The notes under the pieces were generated by a model. That model saw nothing but the letters and a program-made list of their open reading frames with translations, had not been told where the DNA came from and did no database searches. The translations under genes were made by a program, and so were the position numbers. A stretch of 63,193 nt of DNA, the filler included, from Globobulimina sp. (taxonomy: Eukaryota), in the NCBI GenBank assembly GCA_003354225.1. It is 27 parts of 27 records of this genome, joined end to end, with 100 filler letters (N's around TTAATTAATTAA, not from the genome) between each part and the next. Parts side by side here need not be neighbours in the genome. Positions count along the whole stretch, not along the records: positions 49,236 to 51,478 come from PIVH01007930.1; 26 more parts are not named here. The stretch is one strand, 5' to 3'. Each line of letters opens with the position of its first letter. Positions within the stretch are counted from its first letter, which is position 1. This document shows positions 28,179-55,691 of this stretch, in pieces.

Positions 28179-29732
28179 TTATAAGAATGTTCCAATTGGT
28201 GAGAATTTGAATTCCTCTGCTTTCATCCGGAAACTCCGCAAATCAAAGGCCACCATGGTCGAGTTAAAAGACGCTCGGTTATGTTCCACGACCATCGAAC
28301 CTTTTGTTAAATGCTCTTTTGAGCTCATTGTGTCATCATTGAACGTCGAAGAATGTGTATTTTCCTCTTCGCGAGCCACATTATCCAAAATCAATAAAAT
28401 ACTCCGTCGCTCTGCGTCCATTAAGTCGTCGTCAATGCGCAGTGTGTTGCCATCAAAAGTGGCAGCATTTGAGATGAGGTCACAGTCATCCTCTATGCCT
28501 TCAATTGTATTAATATCGTGTTGCATTTCTAAACTCAATGTGTTGTTGTTATAACTGTCTGCTATCACACTCACTGTATGCGGCACAGTGAAATCTGGCA
28601 CATCCAACGAATGCGAATTGGAATAGGGAGATATTAATCGACCGGGATCCAACGAGTTGTCTCTCTCCAAGGTATCATCGCGTTGTTCAACCGACGAAAA
28701 CTGCAATGTCGGAATATTGGCAGTCCTGTTTTTGGAGAAAGTAAACAATCCGTTTCTGACCACAATGCAATTAAAATATACACAAAGCCATACATAATTA
28801 TATAAAAACATATTTTGCACAGTACAGTACCTAAATTTATGATTAATATTTGAACTCTCAATGTAGGAAATATCCGTAATCTGCGTCTGTCCCAAAACCG
28901 AGCCACTCGAAGACATCCTTCGTTTCGATTTGTAATTCTTATACGATTTCCGTACCCGTAATAACAATATGCACGAAGACAAAACTAAGATAGCAATCAA
29001 TGCAAACTTCCAAAACGTGTCCAAATCTGATTTGGAGCCTAAACTCATACTGTTTGCGACGTGATTATTATAGTTTGTATCCGAGGTTTGAGGTACAAAA
29101 TGGTGTGGAAAATCGCTTGTGTTTGCTGCAGTGTTTCCGGTTTGTTCTGTATTATTTATGTCTGTCTTATGTATTTGTGTCGGTTTGGTTGGTTCCATTG
29201 ATTCTTCCTCGCTCACTTCAGTCAACGTGTTGTTATCAGCATATATGTCATCTTCTGCATCATTACAAATCCAAAAATATTTGTTTTCTCCATTTGTATC
29301 GTCCCATAATAAGCTCGCACTGCCTCCCCATAGCCTGACATAGCGGTCAGTGGAGGCACTTTCTGGTCGCTCATCAAACCATGGATATGCGAATGAAATC
29401 AAATCTGTTCCGAAATCGAATGGTGTGGAATCAGACCAGGTATAGTTTATATAGTTGGTATTTGTGGCTATATTTACTAAACCTATCCAAAAATTGTTTA
29501 CTTCCTGATTTGTGGCAATGATTTTCGTGCGTAGCTGTTGGAATGTTTGTGAATCGTGAATGCTTAATAAGTGACTGTTATATGTAGATAAACAATGCCA
29601 TTCTGCACCGTTCCAATCCAGTTTATTGTCGTCACTCAGATACTCTTCATCTGTGGGTAGAATGTATGACTGTGTTAGCATAAACAGCGAATGTACGGAC
29701 AGTATGATACATAACACAACATTATGTGTCAT
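28179..29732 (-). CDS. Single-pass C-type lectin domain receptor-like protein; probable in-frame 75-nt intron 28830-28756
   Basis: Signal peptide, CTLD (LDWNGAEWHC...HLLSIH...FWIGL...YTWSD...WDDT...FWICN), then TM helix FALIAILVLSSCILLL followed by a basic cluster. Confidence 0.88.
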   Translation of the reverse strand: MTHNVVLCIILSVHSLFMLTQSYILPTDEEYLSDDNKLDWNGAEWHCLSTYNSHLLSIHDSQTFQQLRTKIIATNQEVNNFWIGLVNIATNTNYINYTWSDSTPFDFGTDLISFAYPWFDERPESASTDRYVRLWGGSASLLWDDTNGENKYFWICNDAEDDIYADNNTLTEVSEEESMEPTKPTQIHKTDINNTEQTGNTAANTSDFPHHFVPQTSDTNYNNHVANSMSLGSKSDLDTFWKFALIAILVLSSCILLLRVRKSYKNYKSKRRMSSSGSVLGQTQITDISYIESSNINHKFRYCTVQNMFLYNYVWLCVYFNCIVVRNGLFTFSKNRTANIPTLQFSSVEQRDDTLERDNSLDPGRLISPYSNSHSLDVPDFTVPHTVSVIADSYNNNTLSLEMQHDINTIEGIEDDCDLISNAATFDGNTLRIDDDLMDAERRSILLILDNVAREEENTHSSTFNDDTMSSKEHLTKGSMVVEHNRASFNSTMVAFDLRSFRMKAEEFKFSPIGTFL

Positions 29733-29912
29733 GGCAGAGGTTAGGAAAACATCTCAAGTTTTTAAGTGAAATAAATTGAGAAAGGTTAAATAAATATATG
29801 TGATATCAAAATAATACTCAAACAAAAAATATATATTATTTTCATATCAAATTAAAAATGAGATCCTGTTGGTACACTTGATAAAAATATTAAAATTAAA
29901 CAAACAAAAATG

Positions 29913-40345: not shown

Positions 40346-40617
40346 TACGTTTGGTGCATTCATTGCGTTGCATTTTTCAAACAAAGTGTTGTCACTATTT
40401 TTACACATCATAATTCTAAAAATATATTTATAGATTCCTTGTTATTTACCTCATACTAAATCCCGCCATGCAGTCCATTACATGAGTCATTTGGTGCTAT
40501 TTATGTATTCTATTTTTTTTGAATTATTAAAATGTAGTTTATTTTTGGAACACTAACTCTATTTTTGCATACTCAGCTAACTTTTATACTAAATGACTGC
40601 ACTGCTTCAACAAAGAA

Positions 40618-42106
40618 ATGCGACATTTTGATCGGAATTTGTATCGATCAGTGCGTTCAACCTCAACACCCACATCATCAGATATGCTCGATGAAACTGC
40701 TGAAAATGAACATATGACACAACTTGAAATGTACCACACATTTATTCAACCGTCACCAATGAAAGCATCCCATCATAATGAATCTAAACAATTATTGTCA
40801 CCACACCATGAAAAACCAAAAAAGGAATTTAAAACACGTCATAATAATAAGAGGCAAAATGATCATGTTTTTATTTTTGATGTTTTTCGACGTTGTAAAC
40901 GAAATAGAAAAAAAATAATTGATAACAGAGAAAGAAGCATTCGTTACAACAATGGAAAAGCCATTAAAGTGTATCGAGAAAATAAGAAATATTCAGTTGG
41001 TAAATTTGCCAGAAATACAATAAACAATCAAAAATATTCGCTATTGACATTTTTGCCATTGTTCTTATTTGAACAATTTAACCAATTTTGGAATTTGTAT
41101 TTTTTGTTTGTGGCAATAACGCAATTACCAATCCCAGGGAGCATATTTGAAGATTTCTGGATCGGATATTGGTGGACCACAGTACTTCCACTTGTTTTTG
41201 TTGTGTCCATTTCAATGATTCGTGAGTTATTTGATGATTTGCAAAGAAAAAAAAGAGATTATTTAATAAATCATGAAAAATATCAAAGAATAAGTATTGC
41301 AAATGGTACTATTGAATCCGTAGCATCGTGCAACATTAAAATTGGTGATTTGATAATATTGAACGAAGGGGATCGCGTACCGTGTGATATGATATTATTG
41401 TATTGCGAGAATGAGAATGGTTCGACCTTTATTAAAACAGATCAATTGGATGGCGAAACCGATTGGAAATTACGAAGAGCCATACCATCCATACAAAAAT
41501 ATTACAAAAAAGCAAATTTATTTCAATTAAATGGCATATTAAGTGTAGAAGCACCACATTTAGATATTTATCAATTTATCGCTAAATTTGAACATTTCTC
41601 AGATAATACTAATGAAACCGTTGTCGATGCATTGAATTTAGAAAATTCACTGTGGGGATCCACAAGAATTGCATCCGAAGGAGTTTGTATTGGCTGTTGT
41701 GTGTATTTGGGAAAAGAGAGCCGTCAGCAATTAAATGCAAACGATAAAACCGTAAAAATTGGTCTCATTGATAAGGAATTAAACAAAGTCACAAAAATAT
41801 TAGTTTTCATGTTAGTTTGTATAGCATTCATATTAACAGTTTCAAAAGGTATTCATTTAAATAGTTATTTGTATTTTGGTCGCTTTTTATTGATCTTATC
41901 AGATATCATACCCTTATCGTTGAGGGTTTATATGGATCTGTCAAAAATATGGTTTTCTTTTATGATTCAAAGAGACAAATTAATTCCAAATACAACTGTT
42001 CGATGCACCACAATTCCGGAAGAATTAGGAAGAATTCAATATTTATTTAGTGACAAAACCGGCACGTTAACTAAGAATGAAATGATTTTCCAAAAACTTC
42101 AGTTAA
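40618..42106 (+). CDS. P4-type ATPase (phospholipid flippase), ATP9/Neo1 class, 3'-truncated
   Basis: NTINNQKYS, GDRVPCDMILL, FIKTDQLDGETDWKLRRA, IIPLSLRV, TIPEELGRIQYLFSDKTGTLTKNEM. Confidence 0.95.
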
Positions 42107-49235: not shown

Positions 49236-51478
49236 TCCCATAATATCGATACATTGCCATATTCCTTTAAAATTAAAGTTGGAAGCACAAATTGTATTGA
49301 TTTTGCCAACAATTCATTTACAATCTCATCAGATATGCGATTCATTCAATATTGGAATGATTTCTTGGATGAAGCAAAATTATTTGACCAAGAAACAAAA
49401 ACAGATAACAATCGAACCGAAGGGGAAATTCGTTATGATGGTACTTTAAAAGTTCAATTAAAAGAGAATGAAACATTGCGTATCGGAGATGCTTCAATCT
49501 CATTCCAACGGACATTACGCATTCCTGATGACAACAAAGTATATCCCTTACCGCCGGGTTTAGGTAGATTTGAAATTGTAAAAGTTCAGAATCATATAAG
49601 TAGTCAAGGAATGCCTGCGAGTTGGAAGAAACGCAAAGGATGTGTCATACCAATGTTACGTTGACGTTTTCGTCGTTTTTATAATTATATTCGTCTGATT
49701 TGTGTTGTTTGGTTTACAGGTGGCAGAAGGAAGCAATGTGGATCAGTTTGAGCACATTACGACCATGTTCAGTGTATATAGAATAATTATAAATAATATA
49801 TATGATTTTAATAATTAATCGCAATTTGTTTGTTTTAGGTGCTTTGAAAGTAGGTATTGGTAAAATTAATGCAGTGACTGGTGAAGAATGGAAATCACGA
49901 TATTTATCAAAAACAATTGCCGATCAAAACTATGTTGCTTTGCCTAAACAGTTATGGTTAGATGGGATAAATTGTGGCAATGGTTATATTCGACAATTTG
50001 TTGCCATGCCGTTAGGAAAAGGATATTCCGTCGAACATCAAGTTAAGAAAATATCAAAGGAGAAAGAGAAGAATGTTGCTGGCGATGATATGGATGGAGA
50101 TATTGGTATGAATGTGGATGAAGAAAACGAGAATAAAAATGAAGAAATATTTGAAGATGTTGGCGGTATTCAATTCGAAGTTTATCCGAAGTTTGACGAA
50201 AATATTCATGTTTCAACGGATGAAAAAACACAATATCCATCGGCATTTGCGCAGTCTCGATATAACAAACAATTATTAGATTTTACAGCAAATGATCAAC
50301 ATTTACAGCAAGGTGATAATATTTATCTTTTCAGTCATTCTGTTCCACGATCAATGTATCGAGATGTTAATGTTTCAGATATTAAATTTTTAAACGAATC
50401 AATCCAATCAAACAATGCTCATATTATCCAATTTAAGCCAGTTAACACAGATAAATTAAATGAAATTTATGCAAAATGGGTTGAATATGCATTGCATTGT
50501 AAGCAAATTAATGATGATCAAGATGTCGAAATGGAAAATAAAAATGAAGAGGATGTCGATTTAAAATACTTAATTGTCAAAAAAGGATCGTCATTTATTG
50601 TTGTAATGTTGGAAAATGGAGTTGATGATATTGTTAAGAGCTATGATAAAGATAAATTGTATCGCTTTGTTGATGACAATGATGAAAGTAAATTAACTCC
50701 AATCGATCAGCAACAAAGTTTATCACAACAAAATATTAAATATGGTGATATTTTATTTTTTAAAACACCCACTATCACGATTTTTGTTCGCTTGCCAAAT
50801 ATGAAAACATTATCCATTGAAATTGAAGAAGAAGGTACAATTTTAGATTTAAAACAGAAAATTCAAGACATACAACGACTTGAACCATCCAGACAGCGAT
50901 TAATATTTAATGGTTTACCGTTAGAAGATAATAAAACATTGTTTGATTATGAAATTGTAGATGGCGCACAACTTGATTTAATTGCGCGTATGGACGCAAC
51001 TAAAAGAGGCGGAACCGGCGGGATGTTGATTTATGTCAAAACATTAACAGGTAAAACAATCGAATGTATGGTTGAACCAAATGAAACCATACAAGACATT
51101 AAAGCATTGATCCAAGACATGGAAGGAATTCCGCCTGAGCAGCAGCGGTTAATTTTTGCAGGGAAACAGTTGGAGGACGGGCGAAGTTTATCGGATTATA
51201 ATATTCAAAAAGAATCAACTTTGCATTTAGTGTTACGTTTAAGAGGCGGTTGTTTTGTTAATGGGACCAAAGTTTTATTAGCAGATAATAAACAAATTAA
51301 TATCGAAGAGGTTAATATTGGCGATTATGTGTTAACATATAATTTAAACAAAAATATGCATGCAGCCCATCGAGTGTTTGATATTTTAAAATATAACGTA
51401 CATCACTTAGTTAAGATTACATTGAAAAAAGGAAATGATTATTCAAGCATTGTTTGTACGCCATGCCATCCTTTTTAT
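49236..51478 (+). CDS. Multidomain protein: conserved uncharacterised domain - Ubl - ubiquitin(LRLRGG) - Hint/intein-like domain; introns 49655-49719 and 49767-49838; 3'-truncated, start not defined
   Basis: Splicing yields [12 protein letters not shown]...[10 protein letters not shown]...[13 protein letters not shown]...[17 protein letters not shown]...QNYV...QLWLDG...[18 protein letters not shown]...[10 protein letters not shown]. Ubl at about 50771-51000; ubiquitin at 51023-51250; Hint from Cys codon 51251 ([12 protein letters not shown]...[10 protein letters not shown]...VCTPCHPFY). Confidence 0.92.
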
Positions 51479-51611
51479 NNNNNNNNNNNNNNNNNNNNNN
51501 NNNNNNNNNNNNNNNNNNNNNNTTAATTAATTAANNNNNNNNNNNNNNNNNNNNNNNNNNNNNNNNNNNNNNNNNNNNTTTTTAGTCACAAAACACGCCG
51601 GTAGTGTAATC

Positions 51612-53321
51612 ATGGTCTCGTTTTTCATTTTATACTTGTTTATAGAAGCTATGGCTGCTCAAAGTTCAGTCTATGCTGCAGAATATATAACAAATAGTAT
51701 ATACATGTACAGCAAACAACATAATAATAATATTTAGATACTAGTGTATGTGTCTGGGGAATAACTGCGGAGTATCCGGAATATACCAAAATAAATGGTG
51801 AATATTTATATTCTGGAATACATAATAACTATCCATATTACACTATGGCAGTTGATGCAACATGCTCCCTTACTGGTGAATTGTTGTTATATTATCATGA
51901 TTTTGAATGGCGCATTGCAGAGGAATTAGATTATTATATTATTTATGAATATTGTCAAAGCTCTAATGACCCATTAACCACTGGTGGCTGTCAGAATAAA
52001 TGGGTGCATGCAAATATGCAAGTTACCTCTGGTTCATGTCCTGAATGGGATTGTGATGCGATCACAACGTCATGGCCAAATACTCACAATTGTGGAGCCA
52101 CGTTTGATACTCATATTGCACCCAATGTATATATGGCATCATCTAATGGCGTATACCTTTATTATAACCATCATCTTGGTGAGTATTTTTGTGGTGATTA
52201 TATAATTGGTTGTCCCGGGAATCCAGGTCCTATATGGGATTTGTCACTGGATCCTTGGATGGAATTATTGAAAGGGTCAAGTATTGATGTATTATTTTCT
52301 GGTATTGGAGTTGATAAGACATTGTATTGTATGGGTATGTATGCATGTATTCATTCAAAACCAGTAACAATTTAATTATATATTTGTAAGGATATACCAC
52401 GTCGCCAACCACTAACTATCCAACAACGATGTTGCCCACTACAGCAATACCAACAACACATTTTCCAACTACAATAAATCCGACTTCATCACCAAGCACT
52501 GCAATGCCGACTACTCTAACTCCGACTTTTTTAACTCCGACTTTTTTAACTCCGACTACTTTAACTCCGACAACTTTAACTCCAACAACTGTGATACCAA
52601 CGACTAACACACCTACCACATCAATACTAACTATTATCCCGACACTTGTTCCAACGATTACCAATGAGCCAAGTACACACATTCCAACAACAGATTTTCC
52701 AAATACAGTAACTCCGATCACTAATGAAGGTATCTTACTTATCTCCTATTTTAAATATATTTTTGTGAATATTTGTGTTAAAATTGTTATATTAATCTTT
52801 TAGAGGAAGTATCTGATGAAGTTTCAACAACTATGCCATTTGATACACGATCCCATTCACAAAACAACCAAGAGCTTTTTCTACAAAGTCGAACATTTGT
52901 TATTATAATTATTTGTATTGTACTGATATTAATTTCCTGCGCAATATCAGTATCTGTATTTATTCAAAAACAAAAACAAAATAAAAACACAGCAACCGGT
53001 ACCAAAAATATATTAAATAATATTGAGTTGGCTCCGCAGGTAAACAATGTTACTAACATTGATGATATGGATAATATTACAGCTACAGCTCCAGTTAGGA
53101 TACGTGCTAAATCATTGAGTGATGATAGTAACGCTATAAGTTCAGTGGATAATGGTAATTTGTCAGAAAATTGTAATGTTGAAAATAATGGTAACGATGG
53201 TAATGTTATATTTGCTGAAGGTAATGGTAACGACAGTGATGGTGAAGATTTGTACCAACCAAATAATGACATTACGCCGCAAGGAACCACTGCTGGTAAT
53301 GATCAACCAACACGTCAATGA
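51612..53321 (+). CDS. Multi-exon single-pass surface glycoprotein with Cys-rich ectodomain and Thr/Pro mucin-like stalk
   Basis: Signal-like N-terminus (MVSFFILYLFIEAMAAQ), Cys/Trp-rich exon, PTTLT/PTFLT repeats, TM helix FVIIIICIVLILISCAISVSVFI. GT-AG gaps near 51663-51738, 52335-52390 and 52730-52803. Confidence 0.75.
52505..52590 (+). repeat. 15-bp coding tandem repeat (CCGACTxxxTTAACT) encoding PT(T/F)LT
   Basis: About five consecutive units visible. Confidence 0.85.
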
Positions 53322-54311
53322 GGTGGTTAACGTTCATGTGTTTCCCATTGTACATGTTACGATAATGTTGAATGTTATGTATTTTTCAATTTATGTGGCT
53401 TCTTTTTTAATTATTTGTGTGAATCACTCAAACCTCACTAAACGATATATTCAAAAAGATAACCCCCACCCCTGGTCGATAAGTTGTATTCAATTATCAT
53501 TATGTGAGAAACTTTGCTACGAAATTAACTTTGCTATAGGGTTGTCTTGGGTTTGTTCTGTGTTTGTTATAACTTTGTCTTTTTCAATATTCATCAAAGT
53601 CCCAAATCAAAGTTAAATATAACCATAAAACATAAGAAACAACAAAGCACAAAGCACAAAAATGTGAACTTGATTCGCTTGTCAAAATATAAAACCTCTA
53701 TTGATTTAATTTCATTTCAATGTTTCAATTTCTTTTTGCAATTTACTACATTTTGATTGTAATTGGTCAAACTTTTCTTGCCAGTCATCATTTATAGCTT
53801 TCTTAATATCCGATAATTGTTNNNNNNNNNNNNNNNNNNNNNNNNNNNNNNNNNNNNNNNNNNNNTTAATTAATTAANNNNNNNNNNNNNNNNNNNNNNN
53901 NNNNNNNNNNNNNNNNNNNNNATTAAACTTACCGCCTGTAAAACTACATTGTAGTATGTTGGCAGAGGATGGAATAAAAGCTGCCATTCAGGACTTACAA
54001 CAGAAAAAACAAGCAAAACAATTACAAGCGAATAAGGACATCGAAACAGGAAAACAATCCACATCTTCTTCGTAAAACGTTCTTAATTACAGTGTTTTAA
54101 TTTTATTTTTGTCACTTTCATAATTGGTTTTAATACCCCTCGCCTCGTCAATCTGTTGCGCTGCGCAAGGATATTTTAGAAGCAATCTGTAATCGGTGAG
54201 TATGGAGCCGGACTTTGTTTTATTTAAAATGAAAGAGAATAAAATAATCAATCTTGGAAAATGCGCACTTGATTATGAAAACCCATCAAAAACCTTGTAT
54301 CACTGTCAACG

Positions 54312-55691
54312 ATGTCACAAAGAGATAATGTCACAGATTTACCAGCCAGAGAAAAGAAAAAACGCAAACGAAAAAGTGCGACAAACGAGAACATTGTACC
54401 GCAATCACAACAGAATAACAACAATCACAACAAAGAGCAAATACTTGAGGCAATGAGTGATTTTCTGCTATATTCATTGAAAAAAAATACAGAAATTGAT
54501 TCAGAAAATAAAGATAATGAAAATGAAAATAATGAAAATAAAAAAACAGAAACAAACACAGAGAAAGATAATAATAAATTGACACAGAAAATTCATGAAT
54601 TCCATACAAAACCAGACAACAAAGAGAATGATACAGTGAAAGCCTCGCAATATATAAAAAAACTGCGAAATGAAAACAATGAGAATGAGAGTAACGATTC
54701 CTCAGATAATGAGAGTGATAATTCGCCAGTCGATGATCCATTATTGACCTTATTACAAATTGAGGCCACAACGAAAGATCAACCAACAACCATTGAATAT
54801 GACGATAGAGTCTACGATAAAGTAATATTTCAAGATGAAGAATTTAAGCAATATCGAAAAAATAATATTGCAATCAAACAAAATAAATTCAAATTCCATC
54901 GACATAATACGGATAAAATTATTCATTACACTAAAAAAACACATATGAATAATAATATATATATCACACAACATAAAAATAATAATAACGAAGCATATCA
55001 TCAAGAGGAAGATCATAACTTTGCGCCAAAAAGCATTGGTAAAATGAAAGCAAATTATTTTATTGCATTAAAAATCACAGACATGCGAATAAAACGGAAA
55101 CTAAAACAGGCGCAAAATATATTGCTGAAGGAGTTAAATGATAAAATATATGAAAGAGCGTTGATTGATGAAAGTATGTTTCATATCACAATAAATACAA
55201 TTTACTGCGCGAGTGATGATGAAATATTTTATTTAATAAATCAATTTGAGGAGTTTGGAAAGAATATGTTTCAGAAACTAATCCCAACAAAGTTGAGTGT
55301 GCGATTACATGTGAACGGGATTTATCATTTTAGACAGAAAGTGATTTATGGAAATATTGAAGATGATGGGAATAAAAGAAAAATAGAAAACGTATATCAT
55401 GCGTTACATTCACAATTTCAAAATGCAGGGATTGTTAATCAACAACATCGGTTTGATCCGCATTTAACTATTATGAAATTATCAAAGATTAAAAATAATA
55501 AGAAATTAAGTATTCCAATACATATTATTGAGAAATTAAATAACGAATATAATAAATCATTGGATTTTGGATATCAATATGTCAATGGATTGGAATTATT
55601 ATCAATGGTTGATGAGAGAAATAATAATAACGAGGATGTTTGTGATTATTACCAATGTATTTCAACCATTGCACCTTATAAACTTAGATAA
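54312..55691 (+). CDS. AKAP7-like 2H phosphoesterase (2',5'-RNA ligase-like fold) with a low-complexity N-terminus
   Basis: ANYFIAL, first 2H motif FHITI, second 2H motif FDPHLTIMK, FGYQYVNGLELLSM. Confidence 0.85.
   Translation: MSQRDNVTDLPAREKKKRKRKSATNENIVPQSQQNNNNHNKEQILEAMSDFLLYSLKKNTEIDSENKDNENENNENKKTETNTEKDNNKLTQKIHEFHTKPDNKENDTVKASQYIKKLRNENNENESNDSSDNESDNSPVDDPLLTLLQIEATTKDQPTTIEYDDRVYDKVIFQDEEFKQYRKNNIAIKQNKFKFHRHNTDKIIHYTKKTHMNNNIYITQHKNNNNEAYHQEEDHNFAPKSIGKMKANYFIALKITDMRIKRKLKQAQNILLKELNDKIYERALIDESMFHITINTIYCASDDEIFYLINQFEEFGKNMFQKLIPTKLSVRLHVNGIYHFRQKVIYGNIEDDGNKRKIENVYHALHSQFQNAGIVNQQHRFDPHLTIMKLSKIKNNKKLSIPIHIIEKLNNEYNKSLDFGYQYVNGLELLSMVDERNNNNEDVCDYYQCISTIAPYKLR

Follow-up and report, generated by a model that had tools for sequence, protein, structure and literature searches.

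A probable BUBL-type ubiquitin-Hint self-processing module inside a foraminiferal gene for a widespread β-rich protein

Can a protein activate a ubiquitin that it carries within its own chain? The question is raised by a gene of the foraminifer Globobulimina sp. (assembly GCA_003354225.1). In its product the last residue of a ubiquitin, Gly76, is joined directly to Cys1 of a Hint (intein-like) domain. The gene lies on the plus strand at positions 49236-51478 of a 63,193-nucleotide stretch of DNA, called the window here, in which contigs of this genome are joined by artificial spacers. To our knowledge, BUBL is the one natural case reported of an intein-like domain that activates a ubiquitin-like domain (Ubl) without E1 or ATP. 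An earlier note on the window, made from the DNA alone, proposed that this protein is a self-activating, E1-independent ubiquitin. We conclude that the gene probably contains a BUBL-type ubiquitin-BIL (Hint) self-processing module, placed within a β-rich host protein that is itself widespread.

Is the ubiquitin genuine? The domain at 51023-51250 has 76 codons and ends in LRLRGG (PF00240 scores 94.8 bits for protein P0002). In a phmmer alignment to human polyubiquitin it is identical at 62 of 76 positions and differs at 14, the count that the earlier note had reached by hand. The alignment also bears out what that note said of single residues: Leu8, Ile44 and Val70 of the patch are kept, as are Lys48 and Lys63, and the two lysines lost are Lys29 (now Leu) and Lys33 (now Met). 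Lys6, Lys11 and Lys27 are present as well. With 76 residues, the LRLRGG end, the Leu8/Ile44/Val70 patch, Lys48 and Lys63 all in place, this is ubiquitin proper. A divergent Ubl ending KRGGTGG had been described just upstream. The Pfam ubiquitin family scores 156.8 bits over two stretches, so this second domain, Ubl1 (50771-51013), is real as well. It ends in KRGG, is 35% identical to the ubiquitins of orthologues and is separated from the ubiquitin by a Thr-Gly-Gly linker (51014-51022).

The direct fusion to a Hint also holds. The codon after Gly76 is TGT (51251-51253), encoding Cys and followed by FVNGTK, and the Hint families of Pfam start at exactly this residue. From here the frame encodes the N-terminal 76 residues of the Hint (51251-51478), with block A at the start. 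Its last nine codons read VCTPCHPFY and include the block B motif Thr-Pro-Cys-His (51458-51469), in which Thr is at 51458-51460 and His at 51467-51469, in agreement with the TxxH motif first recognized there. On the translation, the predicted scissile junction Gly76/Cys1 is at 51248-51253. The gene is not an ordinary polyubiquitin precursor: a Hint follows the ubiquitin, and what precedes it is a divergent Ubl together with about 520 residues of non-ubiquitin sequence. Up to Gly76, 626 residues are visible in the spliced frame, from which the N-terminus is missing.

Could the assembly have joined a ubiquitin gene by error to a Hint gene unrelated to it? Assemblers can be misled by ubiquitin, since it is a conserved repeat. 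Loose ends occur at 51194 and 51228, where some contigs match the conserved 3' part of ubiquitin and then diverge; we read these as probably derived from other ubiquitin genes. Yet the junction at 51250/51251 is spanned by contigs from four sequencing runs of four studies (X1 record 8; X3 record 16; X6 record 22, 1556 nt; X8 record 28, 1680 nt), which reach at least 47 bases to either side of it. Independent transcriptomes from foraminifera of three genera contain Gly-Gly/Cys junctions, and the same type of junction is seen in 29 of 150 representative clusters. A chimeric junction was the first way in which the earlier note thought it might be wrong; given the bridging contigs from four studies we reject it, its probability being negligible unless one and the same error runs through all four data sets. 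The note had also reported that the Hint is cut off at the contig end. That end is an artificial joint; beyond 51478 the X6 contig extends for a further 443 nt and the X8 contig for a further 917 nt, so the gene continues.

What kind of Hint is this? A match of 51251-51478 to a Hint profile had been suggested as a check, and its outcome is divided. Families of the Hint clan begin exactly at Cys1 and stay under their Pfam cut-offs on the half domain: Hom_end_hint scores 28.2 bits against 32.1 and Vint 23.9 against 27, with further sub-threshold scores for Hint (18.7 bits), PT-HINT (15.2) and Hint_2 (13.5). Against the Protein Data Bank (PDB), however, the best match of the 76-residue fragment is BIL2 of the Tetrahymena thermophila BUBL1 locus (6Y75/6TMM), with an E-value of 1.6e-4 over the whole length. 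Complete relatives, 50-58% identical over the window Hint fragment, carry Hint domains, and the complete Hints of Nonionella pass the Pfam gathering scores (PT-HINT 60-64 bits, Intein_splicing 56-63, Vint 40-41). The fragment itself falls short in Pfam, then, and the assignment stands on BIL2 and on the relatives.

A profile built from four Hints (alignment A1: three complete foraminiferal domains and the window fragment) matches BIL2 with an E-value of 1.6e-19 over positions 2-147, followed by a BIL domain of C. thermocellum (2.5e-11) and then by true inteins. The AlphaFold model of the Hint from the Nonionella orthologue has a pLDDT of 90.9. When this model was compared with known structures by Foldseek, the top four matches were BIL2 chains (TM 0.88-0.90, rmsd 2.0-2.4 Å), followed by 2LWY, mini-inteins and Hedgehog. 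Cys1 and the block B Thr-x-x-His are present in the window Hint; the Thr and His are invariant in A1, and the His aligns to BIL2 His69, to which PMC8616854 assigns a catalytic role. To judge by its sequence, the window Hint is a BIL-type domain of a ubiquitin-linked clade. The precedent that the earlier note had seen in the Tetrahymena BUBL genes was well chosen, BIL2 of BUBL1 being the best match in both sequence and fold. The ESM Atlas gave unnamed, mostly fungal clusters and one cluster named 'Ubiquitin-like domain-containing protein' at a score of 0.89, which serve as leads only.

Does the window gene have relatives? A word-index search with the Hint region gave four proteins among 12 candidates (309-984 aa range), and no near-identical copy of the window gene was among these 12. 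By cluster look-up the four come from Nonionella stella, Bolivina argentea and Ammonia sp., all Foraminifera. A second look-up of ten proteins returned Nonionella or Bolivina for three and environmental sources for seven. Every named relative of the window gene is foraminiferal. A profile search of 1.84 billion representatives found 8920 proteins at E ≤ 0.001, including 63 at E ≤ 1e-30; the counts of junctions, Hint ends and +1 residues given here refer to the best 150 representatives of those 8920. By a strict ubiquitin profile, a ubiquitin ends directly before Hint Cys1 in 29 of the 150 proteins, at 35 junctions. This is a lower bound, since the strict profile misses divergent Ubls, for example in the Ammonia proteins. 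Gly-Gly precedes Cys1 at 26 of the 35 junctions. The Hint end is visible for 30 of them and reads His-Asn in 28, Lys-Asn in one and Arg-Asn in one. No ubiquitin adjoins a Hint in the other 121 proteins, which are often tandem arrays. Across all Hints of the 150, Cys1 stands at 291 of 293 starts, His-Asn at 252 of 277 ends and Lys at the +1 position in 148 of 279. In metagenome loci searched with a ubiquitin-plus-Hint query, none of the 80 loci retained had a Hint at E ≤ 0.01; relatives made up 577 of 586 stretches, ordinary ubiquitin dominating.

At least four architectures can be told apart: a cassette in a host loop, poly-ubiquitin-Hint arrays, a Ubl-Hint with a Cys-rich domain of about 150 residues that has no Pfam family, and a Ubl-Hint as a C-terminal cap. 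The Cys-rich type is seen in a foraminiferal family of about 400 residues (P0005, P0006, P0007, P0009, P0013, P0014), with a divergent Ubl, a GG/Cys-Hint junction and a C-terminal region of about 150 residues that carries a CPGCK motif and has no Pfam match. Many of the best Hint matches (P0037, P0039, P0050, P0057, P0070, P0175) instead string 3-7 BIL domains together head to tail through 'HN-K-G-G/A-C', with almost no extein between them. In P0015, P0040, P0059 and similar proteins, two terminal Hints follow a domain of about 460 residues. The C-termini of P0004, P0012, P0017 and P0092 resemble a RanBP2/NZF zinc finger (W-x-C-x2-C..C-x2-C; the Pfam score for P0004 is 15.7 bits against a cut-off of 27). 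Zinc fingers of the RanBP2/NZF type can bind ubiquitin.

Do the ubiquitin-linked Hints belong together? When 262 complete Hints were placed in a FastTree tree, four changes were enough to account for the label 'ubiquitin-adjacent', against a mean of 36 when labels are shuffled (none of 500 shuffles was as low), and a branch with support 78 has 37 of the 38 ubiquitin-adjacent Hints on one of its sides. A smaller but better modelled tree (IQ-TREE, quick) has 87 rows: all 41 ubiquitin-adjacent Hints, the window fragment and a random 45 of 221 others. It contains a foraminiferal-type clade of 37 rows that includes the window (SH-aLRT 89) and a separate ART-type clade of five rows (SH-aLRT 83); the group enclosing them is not resolved into branches. 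These trees are compatible with a single origin of the foraminiferal- and ART-type ubiquitin-linked Hints. The window Hint is sister to that of P0058 (SH-aLRT 83), within a subclade of 'terminal' Hints that precede Lys, a third Ubl (Ubl3) and the C-terminal half of the host.

Where in the protein does the module sit? The closest full-length analogue is the environmental protein P0019 (1102 aa), with 46% identity across 557 columns of the alignment. It begins with the host N-part, continues with a Ubl, the ubiquitin, the Hint, Lys-Gly and a third Ubl, and closes with the host C-part; P0058 and P0092 have the same order. At the linker between the first two ubiquitins P0019 has TGS, whereas Nonionella P0008 and environmental P0012 have an extra Hint at this place, where the window gene has only Thr-Gly-Gly. 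P0019 has one more Ubl (residues ~255-330), in a different loop of the host N-half; the window gene lacks it.

The host itself is not confined to Foraminifera. Exon 1 of the window gene has homologues at E ≤ 0.001 in 1029 of 1157 candidates, mostly of about 330 aa and without a Pfam family, and those with a named source are bacterial. This 330-residue family carries an invariant 18-letter motif (proteins P0190-P0299; window 49236-50190). All three bacterial homologues tested align to the N- and C-terminal flanks of the foraminiferal cassette. The AlphaFold model of one bacterial member, from a 77-sequence alignment, is a single β-rich unit (pLDDT 86.4, pTM 0.84) in which residues 181-196 form a disordered loop; the parts on either side of it are those aligned with the cassette flanks. 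Because the bacterial homologues align to both flanks and the loop of the model lies between them, the Ubl-Ub-Hint-Ubl cassette is, as modelled, a loop insertion in a widespread, single-fold, β-rich host protein. No Pfam family was found for the host, and Foldseek gave no PDB neighbour of the bacterial model at E ≤ 0.001 (best TM 0.17). The host is, on this model, an uncharacterised fold that merits a study of its own.

What would the module do? Complete Hints of orthologues end in Asn followed by Lys: KN/K in P0058, RN/K in P0092, QN/K in P0019 and HN/K in P0004, P0011 and P0012. The +1 residue of orthologues is Lys at terminal Hints and Ala or Met at most internal ones, a minority of internal Hints having Ser or Thr. 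A further Ubl comes after the Hint in P0019, P0058, P0092, P0004 and P0012. Because the window Hint keeps Cys1 and the block B Thr-x-x-His, and because orthologues keep the terminal Asn and have no Cys, Ser or Thr at +1, a Gly76 thioester, either cleaved or passed to an amine, would be expected in the window protein.

The course that we propose is as follows. An N-S acyl shift at Cys1 would turn the Gly76-Cys1 peptide bond into a thioester. The terminal Asn would cyclise and free the downstream part. An amine would then resolve the thioester, most likely that of the +1 Lys or of a lysine in the downstream Ubl. Finally the Hint would leave, and the two host halves would stay joined through ubiquitin with neither E1 nor ATP. 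Other possible fates of the thioester are hydrolysis, giving plain release, and transfer to other proteins. Self-processing at Gly76 is very likely in our judgement. That it is followed by intramolecular re-joining is a possibility that we put somewhat below an even chance. The earlier note had named transfer, splicing and self-cleavage as outcomes, and which of them applies cannot be told from the sequence. Re-joining in cis is favoured because the two host halves form one fold and a Ubl that starts with Lys is tethered by the active site.

The nearest studied relative lends this course some substance. According to PMC8616854 (section 2.4), BIL2 forms an isopeptide bond with a lysine in the downstream ubl5 and modifies a Ras GTPase as well, independently of ATP; its authors speak of a 'single-ubiquitin-dispensing platform'. 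PMC9200820 likewise concerns the isopeptide chemistry of Tetrahymena BIL2. The claim of a self-activated ubiquitin that needs no E1 must be divided accordingly: the thioester at Gly76 would be expected by homology, but its novelty falls away, as ATP-free conjugation by BIL2 had already been published (PMC8616854).

Several observations weigh against this proposal. The window contig stops before the C-terminal half of the Hint, and the terminal residues are read in orthologues only. In the nearest orthologues the penultimate His is replaced, by Lys in P0058, by Arg in P0092 and, by eye, by Gln in P0019; Asn cyclisation may therefore be slowed. The zinc ligands of BIL2, H48 and H125 (PMC8616854), align to Tyr and Thr in the foraminiferal profile alignment, so zinc activation may not carry over. 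Lys at +1 is the norm across the BIL family, including tandem Hint arrays without ubiquitin, and so is not specific evidence for attack by Lys. The loose ends at 51194 and 51228, described above, belong to the same side of the account. Lastly, the activity of the foraminiferal members is predicted, ATP-free conjugation having been published for BIL2 only.

Taken to their limit, such observations would make the module an inactive relic: the Hint would no longer process, and the protein would stay uncut or be cut by ordinary deubiquitinases. The loss of the penultimate His in three nearest orthologues and of the BIL2 zinc-ligand His residues would fit a relic. Against it, the clade as a whole retains Cys1, the block B Thr and His and the terminal Asn, and inteins without a penultimate His are known to be active. 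In a tally of 40 of the 92 differences between the window and the contigs, the other 52 lying outside it, 27 are synonymous and 13 are not, which we count in favour of the main reading. All three in the ubiquitin-Hint part are synonymous, and this speaks against a relic too. We regard a relic as very improbable.

Would cleavage alone suffice? The Hint would then be a self-removing spacer, and hydrolysis with Asn cyclisation would cut the precursor in two. One product would be host-N-Ubl-Ub with a free Gly76, to enter the E1 pathway or to stay bound non-covalently to the other half; the second would be Ubl3-host-C. BIL domains without a +1 nucleophile reportedly auto-cleave, as Dassa et al. are said to have found (JBC, 2004). 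The ubiquitin keeps LRLRGG, Ile44, Lys48 and Lys63, as expected for ordinary use after release, and the poly-ubiquitin-Hint arrays place a Hint where a deubiquitinase would otherwise cut. In some relatives (P0016, P0076, P0082), moreover, the chain ends 2-4 residues after the Hint, which permits only N-terminal cleavage or transfer. A pure cut would have no obvious purpose, however, in a host whose halves are predicted to form one fold, and BIL2 forms isopeptides (PMC8616854). We hold cleavage alone to be on the unlikely side.

The C-terminal Hints bear on a further alternative, E1-free ubiquitylation in trans, the reading that the earlier note had put foremost. Here the Gly76 thioester would pass to lysines of other proteins, or to the thiol of an E2 or E3, so that host-N-Ubl-Ub would be conjugated. 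A Ubl-Hint cap at the C-terminus would give a Ubl thioester without a downstream acceptor, and the BIL2 platform also modified a Ras GTPase (PMC8616854). In the window protein, on the other hand, what is handed over would not be free ubiquitin: it would be a fragment exceeding 630 residues, made up of the 626 that are visible and of the missing N-terminus. In all close orthologues a Lys-rich downstream Ubl is tethered by the active site, which favours cis, and no target is known. Transfer in trans therefore seems doubtful as the fate of this protein, and re-joining of the host halves in cis remains the course that we propose.

The residue after the Hint raises a question of its own. PMC3014934 describes an insertion of 1-2 residues (A, S, T) at the monomer junctions of rhizarian polyubiquitin. 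In our set, the residue between the Hint Asn and the Met of the next ubiquitin is Ala in 12 cases, Ser in three and Thr in one (P0090 has a further Thr, by eye), and it is absent in five. An intervening Ala, Ser or Thr thus stands at 16 of 26 counted Hint-to-Ubl junctions, and the five without are those of P0051, P0052 and P0054, of the ART-type clade. All five Hint-to-ubiquitin junctions from named foraminifera have Ala or Ser. The likeness lies in this residue set (A, S, T) after the Hint Asn, which is the set described for polyubiquitin across Rhizaria. The difference is that the rhizarian monomers are joined directly and cut by deubiquitinases, whereas here a Hint of 140-150 residues stands between Gly76 and the inserted residue. 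No direct ubiquitin-ubiquitin junction was seen in 34 such Hint-bearing proteins.

A joint reading can be put forward, in which the loop ubiquitin is a cross-link installed by the BIL domain without E1, E2, E3 or ATP, and the rhizarian A/S/T insertion is the footprint of a Hint. That both hold together is decidedly unlikely, and we offer it as speculation. If the first part were true, an isopeptide from Gly76 to a Lys of the downstream Ubl or to the +1 Lys would make a di-ubiquitin-like branch, and many foraminiferal genes would have taken up Hints of this clade as a general means of conjugation without E1. If the second were true, the rhizarian signature would be the +1 residue that dates from an ancient entry of a Hint into polyubiquitin. 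Hints with Ser or Thr at +1 could then splice as true inteins, yielding polyubiquitin of the rhizarian type.

How is the gene built? The window consists of 27 contigs of about 2.24 kb each (about 2243-2246 bp), has a G+C content of 34% and carries N44-TTAATTAATTAA-N44 spacers between contigs; genes on either side of a spacer are therefore not genome neighbours. The whole contig at 49236-51478 is one partial gene on the plus strand, cut at both ends by artificial joints. The spacer after it (51479-51578: N44, a six-frame stop linker, N44) is not biology. Spliced, the gene gives a frame of 2106 nt with zero stops; unspliced, a single open frame runs from 49793 to the N run at 51479, and the opposite strand has short frames only. 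Exon 1 (49236-49654, 5' end cut) encodes the N-terminal half of the host protein, including the invariant motif, and is 64% identical to residues 72-208 of Nonionella P0008. Intron 1 (49655-49719) has 65 nt. Exon 2 (49720-49766), bounded by the contig joints, matches in translation the orthologue stretch MWQKEAMW..PCA. Intron 2 (49767-49838) has 72 nt, and exon 3 begins at 49839. By alignment to P0008, P0019 and P0058, its first part (49839-50770) completes the host N-half, which runs to ~50190 and includes an acidic insert at ~50051-50150, and then encodes a middle region. This middle region is common to the related proteins, bacterial proteins aligning to the flanks only.

Both introns are of the GT..AG type and were first predicted from the sequence and the Nonionella orthologue. 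The joints of the X3, X6 and X8 contigs (49654 to 49720 and 49766 to 49839) agree with the prediction exactly. These three runs, from three studies, lack the introns, and X1 retains both (the first in record 2, the second in record 3). The intron-free X3, X6 and X8 contigs are most simply transcripts, the kind of run not being on record. By tblastn, no other contig of the window has a member of the family.

The other contigs encode a mixture of proteins. They include a C-type lectin domain protein (28182-29753, minus strand), the N-terminal part of a P4-type phospholipid flippase (40597-42105, plus strand) and a protein with an AKAP7 2'5' RNA ligase-like domain (54279-55688, plus strand). On the contig that comes next in the window, a Thr/Pro-rich repeat of TTxxPT units (52390-52803, plus strand) is followed by a likely membrane span; by eye it has the look of a mucin-like surface protein. 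Seven of the ten longest frames tested on other contigs have no Pfam family at E ≤ 1e-5.

What is new, then, and what is not? The module and its proposed chemistry are already known, and no new kind of mechanism is involved. What appears to be new is that the module occurs in this lineage, that it is abundant there, that a near-canonical ubiquitin is set into a host-protein loop, and that there is a link to the rhizarian junction. The earlier note knew of no description of this architecture in foraminifera, and the literature that we searched contains no such paper. Nor did we find literature that connects Foraminifera or Rhizaria with intein-like or Hint domains, although the founding BUBL paper, the BIL2 biochemistry paper or others behind subscription may mention members outside the ciliates. 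The literature searched had the BUBL module in ciliates only; with a near-canonical ubiquitin it is now seen, and abundantly, in a second lineage of protists. This provides a wider set of natural proteins for testing E1-free ubiquitin chemistry, candidate ubiquitin-thioester generators of natural origin for protein engineering, and a testable link to the polyubiquitin insertion of Rhizaria.

How does the foraminiferal module compare with known systems? It is most like BUBL/BIL2. In both, a ubiquitin or Ubl ending in (R)GG stands directly before Cys1 of a BIL domain, orthologues have a Ubl after the terminal Asn with no Cys, Ser or Thr at +1, and BIL2 is the best match of the foraminiferal Hints in sequence and in fold. 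The environmental proteins P0051 and P0054, among the top profile matches, consist of ubiquitin-BIL repeats and a C-terminal ART domain above the Pfam cut-off, a layout that agrees with the depositor's PDB name for the BUBL1 protein. The differences are several. All named relatives of the window gene are Foraminifera, and the cassette of the window gene sits in a loop of an unrelated host with no ART domain. The foraminiferal Hints do not keep the His residues that serve BIL2 as zinc ligands. At the 16 junctions counted above, all five from named foraminifera among them, an extra Ala, Ser or Thr stands between the Hint and the next ubiquitin, unlike at those of the ART-type clade.

Type-A BIL domains (C. 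thermocellum, 2LWY) share the fold, Cys1, Thr-x-x-His and a C-terminal His-Asn commonly followed by Lys (E = 2.5e-11, TM 0.87). They differ in that most BIL-family matches here lack ubiquitin and are often tandem arrays. Canonical mini-inteins (gp41-1, NrdJ-1, DnaB) have the Hint fold (TM 0.74-0.81) and the same first and third steps, N-S acyl shift and Asn cyclisation. Close orthologues of the window gene, however, have no Cys, Ser or Thr at +1 and no homing endonuclease, and their flanks are independently folded domains. In the close orthologues, therefore, standard class 1 splicing is not expected; the +1 nucleophile of a class 1 intein is confined to the minority of internal Hints with Ser or Thr.

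Hedgehog/Hog proteins also have the Hint fold (6TYY, 1AT0; TM 0.76) and pass a thioester at Gly-Cys to an outside nucleophile. In the orthologues a Ubl begins 1-3 residues after the terminal Asn, in contrast to Hog; there is no sterol-recognition region, and PF01079 scores more weakly than PT-HINT and Intein_splicing. Sterol transfer of the Hedgehog type is rejected, since no sterol-recognition region is found in orthologues. The word 'ubiquitin' does not occur in Bürglin 2008 (PMC2362128). The last comparison is with a tool of the laboratory. There, fusions of ubiquitin to an intein are used in expressed protein ligation to make ubiquitin thioesters, by the chemistry expected here and at the same bond, as the earlier note had pointed out. 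Those fusions are engineered, whereas the window gene is natural, conserved and, most simply, transcribed.

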